Below, piece after piece: positions 5,572-34,311 of a DNA stretch of 51,110 bases. The notes beneath the pieces were generated by a model. It was given only the letters and a program-made list of their open reading frames with translations. It did no database searches and was not told the origin of the DNA. The DNA is from Christensenellaceae bacterium (GTDB taxonomy: Bacteria > Bacillota > Clostridia > Christensenellales > Borkfalkiaceae). The position numbers and the translations under genes were made by a program. The stretch's first letter is position 1, and each line of letters begins with the position of its first letter. The DNA is taken from contig JAZUCI010000131.1 in the NCBI GenBank assembly GCA_045639045.1, positions 1-51,110 on the forward strand, written 5' to 3'.

Positions 5572-6669
5572 ATGAAATTAGGCGTTGTAGGACTTCCCAA
5601 CGTGGGAAAATCCACCTTGTTTAACGCAATTACCAAGGCGGGGGCGGAAGCCGCAAACTACCCCTTTTGCACCATAGAGCCCAACGTGGGCATCGTTGCC
5701 GTTCCGGACGAACGTTTGGATAAACTTGCCGCGTTATATAATAGCAAAAAAGTTACCCCGGCGGTGGTTGAATTCGTGGATATTGCAGGTCTTGTAAAAG
5801 GCGCAAGCAAGGGCGAAGGTTTGGGGAACAAATTCCTTTCGCACATCCGTGAAGTAGACGCAATCGTTCACGTAGTGCGCTGCTTTGAAGATGGAAACGT
5901 TATTCACGTAGAAAATTCGGTAGACCCCGTTCGCGATATTAAAACCATTAATTTAGAACTGATTTTATCCGATTTGGAAACGGTGCAAAAGCGTTTTGAC
6001 CGCGTACAATCCCTGGTAAAAACGGGGGATAAAAAATATAAGGAAGAAGCGGCGGTGCTTGAAAAGGTATTAAAGCACTTGGAAAACGAACAACCCGCGC
6101 GCACCCTTCCCCTTACCGAAGAAGAACAAACCATCCTTTACGGAATGTTCTTGCTTACCGCAAAACCCGTAATTTACGCGGCGAACGTTAGCGAAGGCGA
6201 CGCGGGCAAAAACGAGGACGAAATCCCCTTCGTTTGCAAGGTAAAGGAATTTGCCAAAGGGGAAAACGCGGAAGTTTTGATGATTTCCGCCAAAGCCGAA
6301 GAAGAAATTTCCGCTTTAGACGCGGAAGAACAAGAACTGTTCCTTGCAGATATGGGACTTGCCGAAAGCGGGCTTAGCCGTTTGATTAAAAAATCCTACG
6401 CCCTGCTTGGCTTAATCAGTTACTTAACGGCGGGCGAAAAGGAAACGCGCGCTTGGACCATAGTAAACGGCACCAAAGCCCCCCAAGCTGCGGGAAAAAT
6501 CCATACGGACTTTGAAAAAGGGTTTATCCGCGCGGAAGTAGTGGATTACGAAACTTTACTTACCCTTGGCAGTTATAACGCCGCAAAGGAAGCGGGGAAA
6601 GTTCGTAGCGAAGGAAAAGAATACGTGTTCCGCGATGGGGACGTAGTTTTATTCCGCTTTAACGTATAA
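5572..6669 (+). CDS. ychF: Ribosome-binding ATPase YchF
   Basis: MKLGVVGLPNVGKSTLFNA P-loop, central coiled-coil insert and a TGS-like C-terminus. I prefer ATG 5572 (AAGGAG is 9 nt upstream) over the track GTG at 5566. Confidence 0.93.
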   Translation: MKLGVVGLPNVGKSTLFNAITKAGAEAANYPFCTIEPNVGIVAVPDERLDKLAALYNSKKVTPAVVEFVDIAGLVKGASKGEGLGNKFLSHIREVDAIVHVVRCFEDGNVIHVENSVDPVRDIKTINLELILSDLETVQKRFDRVQSLVKTGDKKYKEEAAVLEKVLKHLENEQPARTLPLTEEEQTILYGMFLLTAKPVIYAANVSEGDAGKNEDEIPFVCKVKEFAKGENAEVLMISAKAEEEISALDAEEQELFLADMGLAESGLSRLIKKSYALLGLISYLTAGEKETRAWTIVNGTKAPQAAGKIHTDFEKGFIRAEVVDYETLLTLGSYNAAKEAGKVRSEGKEYVFRDGDVVLFRFNV

Positions 6670-6682
6670 CGAAAAACACGTA

Positions 6683-6716
6683 CCGCCCAAGCGAAACGCG
6701 CTTGGGCGGTTTTTTA
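6683..6716 (+). terminator. Intrinsic terminator after ychF
   Basis: ccgcccaagcg / cgcttgggcgg stem followed by tttttt. Confidence 0.75.
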
Positions 6717-6760
6717 ACGAAATAACGGAAGAGTGCGAAAAGAGAATATTGGCGTATAAA

Positions 6761-6790
6761 ACAAAAGGTCGGGATTTACCCGACCTTTAC
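6761..6790 (-). terminator. Intrinsic terminator after the lipoprotein gene
   Basis: ggtcggg attta cccgacc hairpin. On the minus strand it is followed by cuuuugu. Confidence 0.5.
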
Positions 6791-6802
6791 TTTTCTATTA
6801 AA

Positions 6803-7393
6803 TTATACGGTTACTTTTTCCAAAACGCGGAGTAAGTATGCACCGCCGCCCTTATGGTTGCAAGTAATCAAACGATAGCCGGTGGGCACGTAGAACAGTT
6901 TGGGAATCAAACTATCTTTGCAGTCAACCGAATCCTTTGCATACAATTGAACGAATTGCTTGTTGCCAATGTAGATGAAATAACCGGTAGTTTCATCCGC
7001 GCGGGTGCCGTAGTTTAACAAAATGATTCTACCCGTAGGAACTCTACCTTGTCTGGTTGCGAACAAGTCGGTAACCAACGCTTGCACGTATTGTTCTTGC
7101 ATGCTTTCGTAATCGCCCGTACCTTGATAAGAACCAAATTCCGCAGTATTGAAACCATCTTGCGTAACCGTGATTACTTTAGAAGTATCTTTTACCGAGA
7201 AGGGAATGGTCAATTCGGAGTTTTTCTTGTTTTTTTCGATAAAGGAATCGATTAATTCTTGCGCTTTTGCTACTGCCGCTTCGTTATATTCACCGCCGAT
7301 TTTCGCATCAACGCTACCGCAACCTACCGCAAAGCAGGCAACGAAGGTCATCACTAAAACGGCCAAAAGTGTTAAAATTTTACGCGTTCTCAT
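6803..7393 (-). CDS. Hypothetical lipoprotein (orphan)
   Basis: 196 aa. Signal peptide MRTRKILTLLAVLVMTFVACFAVGC with lipobox AVG|C. GGAGGG RBS. No recognisable catalytic motif. Confidence 0.7.
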   Translation of the reverse strand: MRTRKILTLLAVLVMTFVACFAVGCGSVDAKIGGEYNEAAVAKAQELIDSFIEKNKKNSELTIPFSVKDTSKVITVTQDGFNTAEFGSYQGTGDYESMQEQYVQALVTDLFATRQGRVPTGRIILLNYGTRADETTGYFIYIGNKQFVQLYAKDSVDCKDSLIPKLFYVPTGYRLITCNHKGGGAYLLRVLEKVTV

Positions 7394-7426
7394 AAAAGAA
7401 CCCTCCGTGTTATTTTATCTTCATAT

Positions 7427-7455
7427 ATTCTATCAAGTATTTTAGCGTTTGTCAA
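7427..7455 (-). promoter_or_regulatory. Sigma-A promoter for the lipoprotein gene (TTGACA-17-TAGAAT)
   Basis: Minus strand reads ttgaca aacgctaaaatacttga tagaat. Confidence 0.55.
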
Positions 7456-7525
7456 GTAGTTCTGAAATGTTTTAGAGTTTTTTTAGTAAAATTTCTACCG
7501 ACAACCGTACTTTTATTGCAAACGA

Positions 7526-7553
7526 ATAAAAAAGCCACCCCAAAGGGGTGGCC
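7526..7553 (-). terminator. Intrinsic terminator after the 165-aa membrane protein gene
   Basis: gccacccc aaa ggggtggc hairpin, followed on the minus strand by uuuuuua. Confidence 0.75.
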
Positions 7554-7565
7554 ATATACTTTTCT

Positions 7566-8063
7566 TTACACGTTGGGAACGGAAGCAAGCACCCTGCCAA
7601 ACGCAGTTTTTACGTCTCTTACCGCAGAAGCGCTATCCACGGAGATAACGTTCAACGAAAATTCTGCGTCCGCATGGCCGCCGAACACTTGCGCTTGGAA
7701 ATCCTTACCGTAGGTAACGAGTTGCGCGAACAAGTTGCCGTTCTTTAATAAAAGGCGCAAAACACGGAATTTGCCAAGGCGGAATTCTTCGTCCGCTGCG
7801 GTGGCTTTTACCGTAATATCTTTGGTTTCGTTTACGCGTTCAAGGATTGCTTCATAATACTTTTTCTGATCGGCGGTAAGCGCTTCCACAAATGCAGTTT
7901 CGGAAACTTCTTCCGCTTCGCCATTTAGTTTTCTTGCCATTGCCTTGCGGGTTGCATCCACAATTACGGCAATCAAAAACGCTTCTACTAAAACGGATGC
8001 GGCGATAATTGCAGCAATCATCACGGGCTTCGTAATGAAAGACCAAGCTAAAAATTGTAACAT
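7566..8063 (-). CDS. Hypothetical N-terminally membrane-anchored protein (orphan)
   Basis: Track ORF is 7566-8075. The GGAGGG inside its first codons sits 5 nt before the second ATG (8063), so I take MLQFLAWSFITKPVMIAAIIAASVLVEAFLIAVIV... as the start. One TM helix, then a soluble domain of about 125 aa. Confidence 0.6.
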   Translation of the reverse strand: MLQFLAWSFITKPVMIAAIIAASVLVEAFLIAVIVDATRKAMARKLNGEAEEVSETAFVEALTADQKKYYEAILERVNETKDITVKATAADEEFRLGKFRVLRLLLKNGNLFAQLVTYGKDFQAQVFGGHADAEFSLNVISVDSASAVRDVKTAFGRVLASVPNV

Positions 8064-8135
8064 TTTACCCTCCATTTCCGTACTTTTCTAATAACGAACA
8101 AGAAAAAGTAACGATGACGCTATAATAATGTATTC

Positions 8136-8164
8136 ATTATAACACTACTTTTTGCGAAATGCAA
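8136..8164 (-). promoter_or_regulatory. Sigma-A promoter (TTGCAT-17-TATAAT) for the 7566-8063 gene
   Basis: Minus strand reads ttgcat ttcgcaaaaagtagtgt tataat. Confidence 0.55.
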
Positions 8165-8211
8165 GTGTTTCCTAAAATTTTTTTGATTTTATTCGTGAAT
8201 AAGCAACGGGG

Positions 8212-9018
8212 TTACTTTTTTTCATTGAAATACACTTCCCCGTTATACGAGCCCAAAACACAAATGCCACACGCTTTTTGGAAAATCAATTTTTCGCATC
8301 CCATAACCAAAAGAAAGGAATTTTTAGAAAAGGTTACGCTTACGCTTCCATCGGTATTATACGCTATATCTTTACATAAAAATTGCGCATCCCTACCGAT
8401 AGGGTGTAGGTAAAACTTTTGTTTTTGTACATACACGCATCCTTCCATACCGCAAGCAACCATACAACCCTTATCTATTTGTTGAAGGATATTTAGCGTT
8501 TTCGTTTTTGCCGAATAGGAAAAATATACGCCTAATACGCTTTTTGAGGTATTACTCCTTCCCCCACCTGACAAACAGCCCACCGTTCGCGAGTACAAAT
8601 TGAAAAAACCGTATGCAATTTGGTTTTCCCTATCGTATTCTATGGCGTAGATACTATATGCCTGTATGGAATTTTTTACATAGCGTTCGGTAAAAAGAGC
8701 AATCACCCCTTCGTACCCTTCCGCCTCGTAGTCATAGCCTCTTCTTGCGAAATTAGAATCGCAAACCGCTACGCACTCTTTTTGATAGTAATAGCCGTCG
8801 GGAGGTATTCCTTCCCCTTTTTCCACAATGTCGTTTGCAACGGTTAGCTTAGTATTTTCCCCGCAATAAAACACTTCGCTTTGGTCTTCTTGAGGATGAA
8901 CGTAACGAACGTGAGTAAAGCAGTCGCTACCACTAAAAGCGGCAAAAAAGCTGGGTAGAAACCAAACCAAAAGGCAAATAAACAGTAAAAATCCCACAAG
9001 ACCTACCGCCATCCACAT
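8212..9018 (-). CDS. Hypothetical Cys-rich membrane-anchored/secreted protein (orphan)
   Basis: 268 aa. N-terminal TM/signal anchor MWMAVGLVGFLLFICLLVWFLPSFFAAF, then a Tyr/Cys-rich extracytoplasmic domain. AT-rich relative to neighbours. No obvious SD. Confidence 0.55.
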   Translation of the reverse strand: MWMAVGLVGFLLFICLLVWFLPSFFAAFSGSDCFTHVRYVHPQEDQSEVFYCGENTKLTVANDIVEKGEGIPPDGYYYQKECVAVCDSNFARRGYDYEAEGYEGVIALFTERYVKNSIQAYSIYAIEYDRENQIAYGFFNLYSRTVGCLSGGGRSNTSKSVLGVYFSYSAKTKTLNILQQIDKGCMVACGMEGCVYVQKQKFYLHPIGRDAQFLCKDIAYNTDGSVSVTFSKNSFLLVMGCEKLIFQKACGICVLGSYNGEVYFNEKK

Positions 9019-9056
9019 GCAAAATTTTAAAATGCTTTTGCCTAATCCTTATTCCT

Positions 9057-10382
9057 TCATACGCTTTCGGTGTTTTTCATTACGAATTTATAAAAATCTA
9101 CGGCGGGGGCAAGGCTATCCAGATTTACGTTTTCATCCACCCCGTGCACGCTGCCAAGCTGCGCGTTATCAATTACGAAGGGGGAAAAGCGCAAACAGTT
9201 ATCCGATATCGCGCTGAAAAAGCGGGAATCGCTTGCGGCTGTCATAAGATAGGGCGCGATTGCGGTTTGAGGAAAGACCTTTTTAATCCCTTCGCTAATT
9301 AAAGCGAAAGCGGACGAGGTGTAGTCGGTAAGGGAGGAGGAAACGCCGGGGAATAACACTTCGGTTTCCACGCCGTACTTTTCCGCCACTTTTTTTACCG
9401 CGGCAACGCTATCTTCCAGCCCTTGGTGGTGGGAATAGCGCATATCCGCAATTACGTACGCTTCTTCGGGCAACACGTTTGCCCCGTTTGATCCGCTTGC
9501 CATAGTAAACGCGAGCGTTGTGCGAAGCATTGCCGCCCCTTGGGGGGAAACCGCAGGCAACACCCGTTTTAATACGGGGCGAAATGCGCGGTTATGTTTT
9601 AATAAAAACCGCACGGCGCCCCCTTTCATCCCCTTCCCTATTACGCGGAAGGTTTCGCTTACCGTGGGGGAAAGATAGGTTTGGAACGGACACTTTTTTT
9701 CTACCGCCGCCATAAATTTAGCAAGGCGCACCAAAGGGGTATTTTTACCGGGGGCGGATGCGTGCCCGCCCTTGCCTTTGGCGGTAAATTTTAGGTTGGC
9801 GTATCCCTTTTCCCCTACGCCCACCATGGCGTAATTGCCTAACGCGCCTTTCATAGGCTGCGAAACAATCATACCACCTTCATCTAACACGAAGGAAAAG
9901 CGGATATCCCTTTTCAAAAGTTCCGAAACGATGGTTTGGGCGTGCGCGCCGCCTACCTCTTCGGTACGCGTGGAAACAAAATAAATATCGCGGGCGGGGG
10001 TAAAGCCTGCCGCTATCAACTCCTCTACCGCTTGCAACATGGCAAAAAGACCGCCTTTGGTATCCAGCGTTCCACGCCCCCAAAGCCTTCCTTCCGCCAC
10101 CGTACCCGAAAAGGGCGGATATTTCCAATCCCCCGTGGCTTCCACCACGTCCATGTGGTTCATAAAGCAAACGGGATTTTTACTTTCCTTCCCTTGCCAA
10201 CGAAGAAGCAAGCTGCCCGAAAAATCTTCCACCTTGCAAGTAGAAAACAAGCGGGGGAATTCGGCTTTTAATAGCGTGTGAAAGGCGTAAAACTTGGATA
10301 TATCCGTTTGGTTAGGGGTGGAAACCGTTTCCTTGCGAATCATTGCGGAAAGCCGGGTTGCATATTCGTTTGTTCGTTCCAT
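9057..10382 (-). CDS. M20/M25/M40-family metallopeptidase (ArgE/DapE/carboxypeptidase-like)
   Basis: 441 aa. Motifs NHMDVVEA and GRGTLDTKGG, with acidic metal-ligand region LDEGG. Confidence 0.85.
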   Translation of the reverse strand: MERTNEYATRLSAMIRKETVSTPNQTDISKFYAFHTLLKAEFPRLFSTCKVEDFSGSLLLRWQGKESKNPVCFMNHMDVVEATGDWKYPPFSGTVAEGRLWGRGTLDTKGGLFAMLQAVEELIAAGFTPARDIYFVSTRTEEVGGAHAQTIVSELLKRDIRFSFVLDEGGMIVSQPMKGALGNYAMVGVGEKGYANLKFTAKGKGGHASAPGKNTPLVRLAKFMAAVEKKCPFQTYLSPTVSETFRVIGKGMKGGAVRFLLKHNRAFRPVLKRVLPAVSPQGAAMLRTTLAFTMASGSNGANVLPEEAYVIADMRYSHHQGLEDSVAAVKKVAEKYGVETEVLFPGVSSSLTDYTSSAFALISEGIKKVFPQTAIAPYLMTAASDSRFFSAISDNCLRFSPFVIDNAQLGSVHGVDENVNLDSLAPAVDFYKFVMKNTESV

Positions 10383-12665: not shown

Positions 12666-13012
12666 TGGTGGAGCAGTGGGGACTTGCACCCCAGTCTTAC
12701 ACGGATAACCACTGCTTTCTACATACTTATTTTACCTTTTATCCCTTACGGAGGACTTCGGTAAACGGAATTCCCCCGCCGTGAAAAGCGTAAGTGCCGC
12801 TAGCCTTCCGCTTTTAAAAAGGCTTCGCCGTTCCCCGCCGTTTTTCTGATGCCCGACATCCTACCTGCGGGTAGCAGGAGCGGACAACGCAGTTAAGCTG
12901 CGTATGCTAATTCGTTAGAATTTGCGTTTAAATTTAATACCCTTTTTAACGAAGCAGGGCGCTTCGGTATGCTTACAGGGGCGCACCGTGCAATCGAATC
13001 TGCAACTGCCCC
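12666..13012 (-). ncRNA. ssrA: tmRNA (transfer-messenger RNA, SsrA)
   Basis: Minus strand begins GGGGCAGUUGCAGAUUCGAUUGCACGG and ends GACUGGGGUGCAAGUCCCCACUGCUCCACCA. The 7-bp acceptor stem has the G3:U70 alanine identity pair. There is an internal tag ORF ending GCAGCUUAA. The length of 347 nt and the position downstream of rnr-smpB match B. subtilis synteny. Confidence 0.88.
12893..12925 (-). other. tmRNA tag reading frame, predicted tag ANSNELAYAA*
   Basis: GCA AAU UCU AAC GAA UUA GCA UAC GCA GCU UAA. Same length and same ...YA-AA end style as the E. coli ANDENYALAA tag. The resume codon assignment is my inference. Confidence 0.6.
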
Positions 13013-31789: not shown

Positions 31790-31826
31790 TCTTTTCTCCT
31801 TTCTTGGCTACCTATCAGCCTTTTAC

Positions 31827-31855
31827 TATTTTGGTAGAAACGGGGCGGTTTATAC
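31827..31855 (-). promoter_or_regulatory. Possible forespore (sigma-G/F-type) promoter for spoVT: GTATA-17-CAAAATA
   Basis: Minus strand reads gtata aaccgccccgtttctac caaaata, about 30 nt before the spoVT RBS. Matches my recollection of the consensus GnATA / CAnAnTA. B. subtilis spoVT is sigma-G dependent. This is inference only. Confidence 0.3.
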
Positions 31856-31860
31856 TTTCC

Positions 31861-31894
31861 AAAAAAGAAAACGCCCCCAAATTTTGGAAGCGTT
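31861..31894 (-). terminator. Intrinsic terminator of the orphan 707-aa gene
   Basis: Minus-strand RNA reads CGCUUCCAAAAUUUUGGGGGCG (stem closed with G-U pairs), followed by UUUUCUUUUUU. Confidence 0.6.
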
Positions 31895-31922
31895 TTTTCA
31901 CGGTTTTCAAACGAAGCCGCGC

Positions 31923-34046
31923 TTATTTATCCTTTTTGTTTTTTATAAACTTATCAAAGATAAAAGTAATTAAGGGCACTAGGGCAAGGGTAAATAGCGA
32001 AGGCCACGAATCTTTAATTTTCACCAAAAGTTTTTGCCAAACGGAAACTTCGCTATCGTTTAACAAAATTGCCATATATACGCTAAAGTATACCAAAACG
32101 GCAATAACGGTAAGCATGGCGAAACACGCAATTTTGAACTTTTTCATTTCCTTGTTCTTTTTGCGCAGTTCCTTATTTTCATTTTCGATGGTATCAATTT
32201 CCATACGCGTTTTTTGATACACGCTAATTTGGTTTTCAAACGCGTGATATTCGTGGGGGAAATTGCCCGTTTTGAAGATAATTTCGGTTAAATCGTCTAT
32301 GGGGAAGGAAACCACCGTTTCGAATTTATACAGCGTGCATACCGTATGCAAGGATTCTTCTATGGGCATTTGGGCAACGTTGGTTTTTCTTAAATACAAA
32401 ACCAAGTCGAACAACTGCGCGCGAATGCGCTCCTTCGCCCGATCGTTAGACACCATTCCGTACATATCGATAAGGTACGAAGATACGATAGAAGTTACGT
32501 AGGAATTGAACAGTTCCCCGTTTTCGCTTACGTTATCTTCCACGTAATGGAACAAGCCCATTAGCATATTTTCATCGCCAATGGCAATCGCCACTTGCAT
32601 TAGTTTTATAAAATCGTATTCGGTGATATATTCAAAACGCGAATAAATCACGTTATTGATAATTTCCGCGCAGGTTTCACGCAAGTATTTTTGCGGATCG
32701 GATTCCATCATGGATAAAACGGTGTACCGTTCTAACTGCTCCCTTACGGTATCTACGTTCTTGTTCTTTTTAATATAGGCGTAGGCGGCTTTCGTGGTGG
32801 CGTCGTTTTTGCCAAGGAAGGTGGCAAACACCCAAAACGCCTTACACGTTGCGCCAAAGGTTTTATCGTACGAACCGTCCTGTTCCATGTGCGAGGACAT
32901 TTTTTCCAACACGTGCGCGATACTTTCCTTATCGTACAAACCGCGCGTCATACCAACGGACTCGAATTCCTTTAGTTTTGCTAAAACTTCTACCGTTTTC
33001 ATAAAACTGCCCGATACGAAACCGCTGGCTAAATCTTCTTGCACCCGAAGTTCTAATTTGGAGAAGGTTAAAGCCAAACTTTTATCCACCGAGTGTACGG
33101 TAAAGGAATCGGATTTTTCCAGCTCCTTATCGTTTAGTTCTATCAGTTTTACCCCGTACTTATCCACCGTTTCCTTCACTTTTGCGGGGAGAGAGGAAAG
33201 TAAATCGTGATTGATTAAAATTGCGCTATGCACGCCAAGGCGCGCGTTTGCAACCAAATCGTCCAAACTTTGTTCGTCGTTCGCGTATTTTTTATAGTAA
33301 AGTTTTTTGTTTTCCAAAGAATTCAAAAAGTAGCTAAACCCCAACGTTTCGGTGGCTTCGTTTTGCAAAATAGCTAGCGAGCGATTGTTGGAAAGCAAAT
33401 TTACCAAAACGTTGTGCAGTAAGCCGACGTGCTTTTGATAATCCAGTAGTAAGGAAGAAAAAACCACCTTATGCACGTTATGTTTGGCAATTACCGCGTT
33501 GCCCAAATTATCTAATAGTACGGGCGACCATTGGTTGCCGTTTGAGCGCATTAAAAGCCAATATTTCCCCGAAACAGCGGTGTTTGCGTAGCAATTATTT
33601 TCAATATCCGCCATTTCCACCTTGTTGGGGAAATTAAAGTACGCGTCCGCCGCGCCACCCGGTTTACTTAAGGTAACGAAGTCCTTCGCGTAATTATTTT
33701 CTAATTTTAACACCGAATTCCCCAAAAACGGGAAGGGGTTTTCCTGTTCCTTTAAGGAGTTTTGGTGCATAATCAAACAAGCGCCGCCCTGATTCAAGTA
33801 TTCCTGAAAGGCGTTTACGAAGGATTCTTGGGTAACGAAGGAATAAATACTTTTATCGTTAAACACGTTAGAAGCAAACAATACGCAATCGGTATACTTT
33901 ACGTCTAACGCGGCAGGAAGCATATCGATATTTTCCCTTGTAAAATGTTGCGTTTCCACGGATAAGCCGCGTAAATCCTTTCTTAAATCCGCGTACGAGT
34001 AGTTGCGCATTTCGGAAATATTTTGAACCAATGCCACTTTGAACAT
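31923..34046 (-). CDS. Orphan ~707-aa multidomain protein with coiled coil and two C-terminal TM helices (function unknown)
   Basis: Long uninterrupted ORF. The track start at 34091 is a TTG inside a palindrome. I prefer ATG 34046 (MFKVALVQN...), preceded by AAAGGACGG. AT-rich relative to flanks. Own promoter and terminator. C-terminal TM helices are FKIACFAMLTVIAVLVYFSVYMAILL and WPSLFTLALVPLITFIFDKFI. Confidence 0.75.
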   Translation of the reverse strand: MFKVALVQNISEMRNYSYADLRKDLRGLSVETQHFTRENIDMLPAALDVKYTDCVLFASNVFNDKSIYSFVTQESFVNAFQEYLNQGGACLIMHQNSLKEQENPFPFLGNSVLKLENNYAKDFVTLSKPGGAADAYFNFPNKVEMADIENNCYANTAVSGKYWLLMRSNGNQWSPVLLDNLGNAVIAKHNVHKVVFSSLLLDYQKHVGLLHNVLVNLLSNNRSLAILQNEATETLGFSYFLNSLENKKLYYKKYANDEQSLDDLVANARLGVHSAILINHDLLSSLPAKVKETVDKYGVKLIELNDKELEKSDSFTVHSVDKSLALTFSKLELRVQEDLASGFVSGSFMKTVEVLAKLKEFESVGMTRGLYDKESIAHVLEKMSSHMEQDGSYDKTFGATCKAFWVFATFLGKNDATTKAAYAYIKKNKNVDTVREQLERYTVLSMMESDPQKYLRETCAEIINNVIYSRFEYITEYDFIKLMQVAIAIGDENMLMGLFHYVEDNVSENGELFNSYVTSIVSSYLIDMYGMVSNDRAKERIRAQLFDLVLYLRKTNVAQMPIEESLHTVCTLYKFETVVSFPIDDLTEIIFKTGNFPHEYHAFENQISVYQKTRMEIDTIENENKELRKKNKEMKKFKIACFAMLTVIAVLVYFSVYMAILLNDSEVSVWQKLLVKIKDSWPSLFTLALVPLITFIFDKFIKNKKDK

Positions 34047-34075
34047 ACGAAAAATCCGTCCTTTTTTTCGATAAG

Positions 34076-34091
34076 TTGCGCATATGCGCAA
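34076..34091. promoter_or_regulatory. Perfect 16-bp palindrome TTGCGCATATGCGCAA in the 5' leader of the orphan gene
   Basis: Lies between the -10 (34113-34118) and the ATG (34046). Either an operator for a dimeric regulator or a leader RNA hairpin. Confidence 0.4.
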
Positions 34092-34112
34092 GCGTGTGAA
34101 AATGATAAAATA

Positions 34113-34141
34113 AGTATACCATCCTTATCCCGTTTTGTCAA
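34113..34141 (-). promoter_or_regulatory. Near-consensus sigma-A promoter of the orphan gene (TTGACA-17-TATACT)
   Basis: Minus strand reads ttgaca aaacgggataaggatgg tatact. Confidence 0.6.
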
Positions 34142-34266
34142 TATCGCGCGGAATAAAAGCGCAAGTTATTTACGCAAAAGAAAAAACCTTGCGCGTTTCC
34201 CTTCTTTTCCCGATGTTACGCATTGGAAACGTAACCCCATATAAAAAACCCCGCGGTTTAACCCCA

Positions 34267-34311
34267 AAACAAACAAAAGGGCGAACACAAAAACGTGTTC
34301 GCCCTTTTTTG
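34267..34311. terminator. Intrinsic terminator after efp (bidirectional shape)
   Basis: agggcgaacac aaaaac gtgttcgccct, flanked by an A-rich run upstream and tttttt downstream. Confidence 0.7.

Follow-up and report, generated by a model that had tools for sequence, protein, structure and literature searches.

The 51,110-nucleotide (nt) contig JAZUCI010000131.1 of a Christensenellaceae bacterium (assembly GCA_045639045.1), referred to in its full length as the window, encodes between efp and spoVT a protein of 707 amino acids (aa) that is very probably a functional member of a wide and unnamed protein family. The corresponding open reading frame (ORF) and its homologs are designated gene X, their product is designated protein X, and the contigs or loci that were compared bear L-numbers. 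On the minus strand of the window, the ORF extends over 31923-34091 and codes for 722 aa if read from a TTG codon, or for 707 aa from the ATG at 34046. The latter was adopted as the start of X because all homologs begin there, with N-termini that agree on MFK/MYK-(I/V)-ALVQN.

A preliminary description of this DNA, made from the sequence alone, had presented the gene as a self-contained unit wedged between a pepP-efp block and a spoVT block. Pfam assignments on syntenic contigs support this position: pepP and efp adjoin the unit at one end, and at its other end follow spoVT and the genes for a Polysacc_synt flippase, MazG and Dus. From the efp side to the spoVT side, the features of the locus are the following.

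34275-34308, minus strand: intrinsic terminator of efp, a stem of 14-15 pairs, then a T-tract
34246-34260, minus strand: TAAACCGCGGGGTTT, a weak upstream copy of the spoVT-promoter-proximal motif, forming a 15-nt direct repeat with 31838-31852 (12/15 identical)
34113-34141, minus strand: sigma-70-type promoter of X, TTGACA, 17 nt, TG-n-TATACT, with 11/12 matches and an extended -10 element
34076-34091, minus strand: perfect 16-nt palindrome TTGCGCATATGCGCAA in the 5' leader of X, read in the sequence
31923-34046, minus strand: coding sequence of the 707-aa, predicted tail-anchored protein, stop codon included (ORF; 40 full-length homologs; dN/dS 0.08)
31858-31896, minus strand: intrinsic terminator of X, a 13-pair stem (31896-31868), then a T-tract
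31824-31855, minus strand: spoVT upstream motif GTATAAA-N17/18-AAATAnTA, conserved upstream of spoVT in occupied, empty and distant (L005, L015) loci

The promoter, the terminator of X and the efp terminator on the other side of the gene are all present where they had first been read, and with a promoter and a terminator of its own gene X does constitute a single-gene unit. The -35 box, the spacing and the extended -10 element of the promoter are kept in four relatives (L076, L004, L009, 78% identical, and L005, 72% identical), among which the spacer sequence varies. The 14-nt core of the leader palindrome occurs exactly once in the window and is otherwise found exactly only in L004 and L076; it was not found upstream of X in the lineages in which X is followed by a gene for a permease of the EamA/drug-metabolite transporter (DMT) type. 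This palindrome may be a clade-specific operator or a leader hairpin. An Rfam scan near gene X identified no riboswitch or leader RNA. The motif upstream of spoVT resembles a promoter of the forespore sigma-factor type and may be one.

A variable junction between efp and spoVT

The junction between efp and spoVT exists in several forms, and both occupied and empty ones occur among contigs encoding an EF-P identical to that of the window. It is occupied in the window, in L076 (efp, then gene X) and in L004, the latter two being related contigs of one sister species with a solo X copy as in the window. It is empty in L073, L075, L077, L078 and L079, where a 148-nt spacer with a single terminator separates efp from spoVT. 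In L074 the spacer measures 403 nt and holds, on the other strand, a 76-aa ORF (6626-6856, minus strand) with a lipoprotein-like signal peptide (…ALTAC); the presence of this other small cargo indicates that what the junction hosts varies with the species. Neither the empty spacers nor the L074 spacer contained a remnant of X or of the EamA gene.

The variable segment is a cassette of about 2.5 kb made of the promoter, the palindrome-bearing 5' leader, the coding sequence and the terminator, and it fills the interval from the efp stop codon to the spoVT promoter. By the BLAST break points, the window can be matched to the empty-site relatives up to the efp stop codon (34330), which leaves the efp terminator just inside the efp-side edge of the segment. 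BLAST and alignments place the return of homology at 31871, where the X terminator stem reaches its 3' end and the T-tract is about to begin. The spoVT upstream motif is inside the sequence common to all alleles, about 15 nt from this break point. The flanks are 91-92% identical to those of the window in L076 and L004, 85-89% in the empty group and 75-83% in L074, so that the occupied genomes group as a clade. A search for the exact sequence of the window SpoVT returned no record. A 29-nt direct repeat (26/29 identical), corresponding to the T-tract and the -35 region of spoVT, flanks the cassette on both sides in L076. The TAAACCGCGGGGTTT copy of the window may be a decayed version of this repeat, its similarity being by itself within chance. 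The junction comparison called for by the preliminary description has thus located a presence/absence polymorphism exactly there, and we consider it probable that the X locus is a polymorphic inserted cassette.

Base composition does not bear on this question in the way that was first proposed. Gene X is indeed AT-richer than its flanks, with a GC content of 0.414 against 0.480 +/- 0.027 for the 40 other genes of the window (z = -2.7), and only 1.2% of 2124-nt windows reach a GC content as low; the hand counts of 21/60, 25/60 and 35/60 G+C made earlier on the lines starting at 32581, 33241 and 30421 are exact on recount. Conversely, its GC content at third codon positions (GC3) is 0.517 against a window mean of 0.523 +/- 0.035 (z = -0.16), and the deficit sits at first (GC1, 0.439) and second positions (GC2, 0.285). 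Protein X is rich in Leu, Lys, Asn, Phe, Ile and Tyr, and it is this amino-acid composition that lowers the GC content of the gene. In ten other genomes, homologs are likewise below their neighbours in GC1 and GC2, with a GC3 that tracks the host (0.35-0.66). Native GC3 makes the composition uninformative about transfer, and AT-richness was rejected as a mark of foreign DNA. The earlier claim of a horizontally acquired island consequently stands in part: the cassette behaviour is borne out by presence/absence at the site and by the L076 repeat, the compositional argument falls, and transfer versus loss is undecided. What sustains the island idea is the polymorphism with its flanking repeat, not the composition. 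For island calls in general, GC3 should be checked first since amino-acid composition alone can lower the GC content of a gene.

Two further features were noticed in the window. The 268-aa ORF at 8212-9018 (minus strand), in the lowest-GC 2.1-kb stretch of the window (7001-9100), has a GC content of 0.408 and a GC3 of 0.401, about 3.4 standard deviations below the window mean, and looks compositionally foreign, unlike gene X. A full-length tmRNA gene lies at 12666-13012 (minus strand; Rfam RF00023, 116 bits).

The solo gene X is under purifying selection. Its dN/dS is 0.08 and its dS 0.53 in comparison with L004 and L076, and neighbouring genes have dN/dS values of 0.02-0.20. X and its flanks have comparable dS values, from which it follows that X has been resident since the window, L004 and L076 lineages split.

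The cassette would have been inserted at the efp-spoVT site, possibly with the spoVT-promoter-proximal sequence as recombination anchor. Such an anchor would explain both the 29-nt duplication in L076 and the arrangement in L005, where X-EamA lies directly upstream of spoVT. Homology-assisted insertion of a donor fragment (from the X promoter to the spoVT promoter) anchored on the spoVT upstream region would fit the facts of gain and those of linkage. Alternatively, X could descend from an ancestral promoter-X-EamA-spoVT arrangement, with loss of EamA in the window clade, loss of X as well in the sister species, and nothing acquired. This history is a possibility of some weight, although we would not expect it to be the true one. 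Linkage is what recommends it: the 72% identical L005 has X-EamA directly before spoVT with the same upstream motif, in L015 spoVT lies 4 kb downstream of X-EamA, and L009 and L005 share the X promoter of the window. The native GC3 of X and its flank-like dS agree with it, and a precise deletion could be driven by flanking repeats. Moreover, synteny breaks off at the efp 3' end in related lineages, in which GH77 or Rex-AdhE follows. It demands, however, that X was cleanly lost at least twice, independently in the L073 group and in L074, and that EamA was lost in addition, against a single gain; neither X nor EamA left a remnant in the empty or L074 spacers; and the 29-nt duplication bracketing the cassette is what insertion leaves. 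X is also 67% identical where EF-P is 56% identical (L007) and 72% identical where SpoVT is 38% identical (L005), a comparison with one marker each and uncalibrated rates, which suggests a discordance between X and its flanks. Finally, no homolog with 79-91% identity, the range of a candidate sister-species copy, was found.

Insertion of the cassette is itself confronted with several facts that count against it. The window keeps a mere 12/15 remnant of the upstream repeat copy, no integrase, transposase or other mobility gene is carried by the cassette, the native GC3 leaves its origin ambiguous, and the L005 arrangement fits vertical inheritance with losses equally well.

The truB-ribF-apurinic/apyrimidinic endonuclease-pepP-efp block is conserved in related lineages (L081-L091). 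The gene that follows efp there varies between spoVT, GH77 and Rex-AdhE, which identifies the efp 3' end as a recurrent synteny break point.

A membrane-tethered protein family without a name

Protein X had been described as an orphan, which it is not. A word-indexed search yielded 40 full-length homologs with 39-92% identity, all unnamed, a repeat of the homolog search with a 70-sequence profile gave these 40 again, and an exhaustive profile search yielded 243 clusters at E <= 1e-3, of which 101 at E <= 1e-30. Nearly all members measure 700-790 aa with one or two predicted C-terminal transmembrane or hydrophobic segments, and their source names are 'hypothetical' throughout. Genome scans located members in Clostridia metagenome-assembled genomes, Nitrospira, Thermodesulfovibrionia, Planobispora and Planotetraspora (Streptosporangiaceae), Solirubrobacterales, Bacteroidales, another Bacillota lineage and Methanosarcina. 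The family thus spans several bacterial phyla and one archaeon.

The earlier statement that no catalytic or family motif is recognisable in the product was upheld. Scans of X against Pfam, NCBIfam and PADLOC gave nothing significant, the same scans of distant relatives nothing usable, and a search of Pfam and NCBIfam at E <= 10 only unrelated weak matches. The family profile matched no sequence of the PDB. A literature search on the combination of domains and operon partners found nothing relevant. The folds are known; the family and its combined architecture are undescribed.

An AlphaFold model of X built on 34 homologs reached a mean predicted local distance difference test score (pLDDT) of 82, the toroid domain was also modelled alone (pLDDT 89.5), and the conservation of residues was scored across 70 diverse members. 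The model, searched with Foldseek, displays the architecture that had been guessed from the letters, and every peptide motif quoted in that guess is present in the translation. The parts of the protein are encoded as follows.

33387-34046, minus strand: class-I glutamine amidotransferase (GATase)-like, ThuA-like alpha/beta domain, aa 1-220 (AlphaFold model, Foldseek, conservation)
33096-33380, minus strand: small second alpha/beta domain, aa 223-317 (secondary structure of the model, conservation)
32262-33083, minus strand: alpha/alpha toroid domain, aa 322-595 (domain model, Foldseek)
32133-32261, minus strand: charged helical stalk, aa 596-638, continuous with transmembrane helix 1 (single helix 596-663 in the model)
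32058-32132, minus strand: transmembrane helix 1, aa ~639-663 (hydropathy)
31941-32003, minus strand: transmembrane helix 2, aa ~682-702 (hydropathy and C-terminal sequence; last helix of the model at aa 681-704)

The N-terminal domain has the three-layer alpha/beta fold of the GATase1-like proteins according to Foldseek, where it matched the GATase of GMP synthase, the ThuA-like structures 4jqs and 4pxy, and PabA (E 1e-4 to 1e-3, target TM-score 0.5-0.63). It shares the alpha/beta fold of this class, and its conserved residues follow the strand ends. Polar positions are conserved along the strands (Q8, N9, E12, D20, N39, N60, D64, Q95, D179, D202, Q204 and N212). The nucleophile elbow position reads GGA-x-L-x-x-HQ, where x is C, S, T or V in close homologs and H94-Q95 follow. 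When mapped by secondary structure and not by superposition, no Cys, Ser or His is conserved at the elbow among the 70 members, only Q95. A catalytic class-I GATase (PF00117-type) was rejected: X has no Cys nucleophile with a His-Glu triad, and no Pfam or PDB sequence match. In contrast with the solved relatives, X furthermore fuses this domain to a toroid, a stalk and a transmembrane hairpin, a fusion found in none of them. The preliminary reading of a non-catalytic GATase/ThuA-like domain therefore agrees with the AlphaFold and Foldseek results and with the missing triad. Neither the window protein nor any of ten distant members had a Pfam match of the ThuA-like or DUF4159 type, and the likeness is one of fold to 4jqs/4pxy only. 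In the second alpha/beta domain, Y254 and H273 are nearly invariant.

The helical region of about 270 aa, for which toroid repeats had been suggested, is modelled as an alpha/alpha toroid of about 13 helices. It contains the repeat-like motifs DGSFW..T and GSYD..FGATC..LW, and its conserved residues are S347, T351, GSYD (391-394), T400 and C401. Its Foldseek matches are weak (TM-score 0.45-0.55, best E 7.6e-3) and include the thioester domain of alpha-2-macroglobulin/C3d, transcobalamin (alpha-domain), GH76 and GH105. X shares the fold only: it lacks the CGEQ thioester motif, and no glycosidase catalytic pair is assignable. A thioester protein was rejected as a candidate, the CGEQ motif being absent from the translation, the model being devoid of macroglobulin (MG) domains and the toroid similarity being weak.

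The charged coiled coil that had been noted corresponds to the first part of one helix (aa 596-663), a stalk running into transmembrane helix 1, and hydropathy predicts the two C-terminal transmembrane helices. Weak matches to DivIC and FlaC over the stalk amount to coiled-coil noise. There is one Lys-rich stretch before helix 1 and another after helix 2, and a signal peptide is absent, from which the body and both ends of the protein would be cytoplasmic. We infer that the C-terminal hairpin acts as a tail anchor.

Conserved neighbours and competing roles

In the Clostridial branch, an EamA/DMT permease gene lies directly downstream of X in 19 of the 20 loci for which downstream sequence exists. 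The lone exception is L004, and the window likewise has no EamA gene there. The permease gene overlaps the X stop codon by 4 nt in L001 and in L007/L008, and the identities of X and EamA co-vary across loci. No EamA homolog was found anywhere in the 51-kb window. Deeper Clostridial relatives (L002, L016-L018, L020) have a longer cluster, in which a gene for a four-transmembrane protein of 318-340 aa precedes X and one for a PHP-domain (CehA/McbA-like) hydrolase comes after EamA; in some of them a REP-associated tyrosine transposase gene is next.

In the distant branch, clustering of the neighbours at 51 further loci revealed 26 NagA-like amidohydrolase genes within two genes of X. This covers most distant loci with flanking sequence, and about two-thirds of these genes are directly adjacent to X or separated from it only by an acetyltransferase gene. 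With 336-358 bits, the NagA partner exceeds the 225.65-bit cutoff of the NagA equivalog model TIGR00221, and one representative carries FIDLQVNGGGG, a motif typical of E. coli-type NagA. A hexapeptide acetyltransferase is encoded between or beside X and NagA in 13 distant loci; it resembles the sugar O-acetyltransferases WcaF/WbbJ/Maa, with scores below their cutoffs. NagB, NagK/ROK and phosphotransferase system genes were not among the recurring neighbours in distant loci. Most distant relatives of X thus adjoin a TIGR00221-passing NagA, often with a sugar O-acetyltransferase, whereas nagA does not adjoin X in the window or in the Clostridial branch.

The permease association of the Clostridia raises the possibility that X is a regulatory or adaptor subunit of the EamA/DMT transporter, sensing a cytoplasmic metabolite and gating its export or import. 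The near-universal adjacency of the two genes in Clostridia, with stop/start overlaps at some loci, and the co-variation of their identities speak for such a subunit, as do the membrane tether, the ligand-pocket-like N-terminal domain and the lack of a catalytic triad. It is nevertheless unlikely: strong purifying selection acts on X in the window clade, where no EamA gene lies within 51 kb, and the distant branch has NagA instead of an adjacent permease.

A large cytoplasmic sensor body joined to a small transmembrane module is a common layout among abortive-infection and anti-phage effectors, and it was by this architectural analogy that the gene had first been compared with single-gene effectors. 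On this reading, the cytoplasmic sensor body would trigger membrane damage through the hairpin. X resembles membrane-anchored abortive-infection effectors in this layout and in its accessory presence or absence among congeners, and its distribution across phyla is patchy. Some loci also lie near defence genes. Among 103 neighbours of distant relatives, defence models matched PDC-S28 at two loci, LmuB-like proteins at two loci, a reverse transcriptase (RT UG24) and a type II restriction enzyme. More precisely, L021 has a type II restriction-modification pair and a PDC-S28 helicase, the latter being also found in L043, RT UG24 is in L029, and an LmuB-like ATPase with an HD protein is in L052-L055. 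These are about 4-5 of about 30 distinct loci, which by a rough estimate is not above chance.

X differs from such effectors in most other respects. No model of PADLOC-DB 2.0 matches X, six distant relatives or the one NagA partner that was scanned, apart from one borderline match in the transmembrane region of a distant relative (E 0.001). No homolog was detected in IMG/VR contigs, GenBank phages or PLSDB plasmids, and a Foldseek search against viral structures gave no meaningful match. The conserved partners are metabolic or transport proteins, namely NagA, a sugar acetyltransferase or a DMT permease; the Clostridial contexts are made of housekeeping genes; synteny is stable within Solirubrobacterales and within Streptosporangiaceae; and the purifying selection on X is like that on its housekeeping neighbours. 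The neighbourhood survey that had been suggested as a check on defence yielded recurrent metabolic and transport partners, with defence genes near a few distant loci only. With no PADLOC match, no phage or plasmid homolog and no consistent defence partner, the analogy is not retained: nothing positive supports a defence role of X, which we regard as quite improbable.

The gene for a PDC-S28 helicase, a candidate defence protein (PADLOC E 1e-285), stands beside the X-acetyltransferase-NagA operon in both L021 (2238-4745) and L043 (12233-14824), on opposite sides. This may reflect chance, shared ancestry or a functional link.

The neighbourhood of spoVT (window, L004, L005) and of SpoIIE (L001, L007, L010) could also designate X as a membrane scaffold of sporulation or cell division, and DivIC matched weakly over the coiled coil and transmembrane region (E 0.0024). 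This match is, however, below the cutoff and limited to the coiled coil, the X promoter is sigma-70-like, and some congeners keep the spoVT block without gene X. The family moreover occurs in Nitrospira, Bacteroidales, Methanosarcina and Actinomycetota, and to our knowledge the lineages concerned are not endospore formers. A sporulation-specific role is rejected because of this taxonomic spread, and the scaffold appears very improbable altogether.

A possible role in amino-sugar metabolism at the membrane

The overall explanation that we favour, and in which our confidence is evenly divided, is that X is a functional tail-anchored member of its family, borne on an inserted cassette and having an amino-sugar-related role. 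The body of about 640 N-terminal residues is carried by the long charged helix, which runs into the two-helix membrane hairpin, and would face the cytoplasm. Toroid domains often bind sugars, isoprenoids or cofactors. With low confidence, we propose from neighbours and fold that X acts at the inner face of the membrane, where a putative conserved crevice of its N-terminal domain, lined by Asn, Gln, Asp and Glu, and the toroid would serve to bind or process a metabolite of the (N-acetyl)amino-sugar type or an envelope precursor. In most lineages X would work with NagA and the sugar O-acetyltransferase, and in Clostridia with the EamA/DMT permease; it could be an enzyme, or a sensor or adaptor.

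Several points speak against this role. It is deduced from neighbours and fold alone, with no enzyme motif or ligand identified. The partners differ by clade, being EamA in one and NagA in the other, and the window copy has neither of them within 51 kb. Some distant relatives have neighbours of a different kind: two Streptosporangiaceae have Cu-oxidase_4 there, Solirubrobacterales have Fpg, and one Bacillota has HAD/PGK. Finally, the stalk of about 40 residues holds the body off the membrane, which makes X a poor fit to a membrane-surface enzyme.

The family of about 240 clusters is covered by no model of Pfam or NCBIfam, is not annotated and lacks a relative of solved structure, yet its architecture and its operon partners are conserved. 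The link with nagA and a sugar acetyltransferase provides a concrete testable hypothesis for a protein of unknown function, and the solo cassette, present or absent among congeners, offers a natural comparison for the role of X and its need for a partner. More speculatively, and with considerable doubt on our part, the X family could constitute an unrecognised membrane-tethered component of amino-sugar metabolism, with the solo cassette of the Clostridia as its mobile and self-sufficient form. If so, X may replace a missing step upstream of NagA, such as the release or capture of material containing N-acetylglucosamine at the membrane, or may alternatively be a sensor that couples the status of envelope precursors to the activity of NagA or of the permease.

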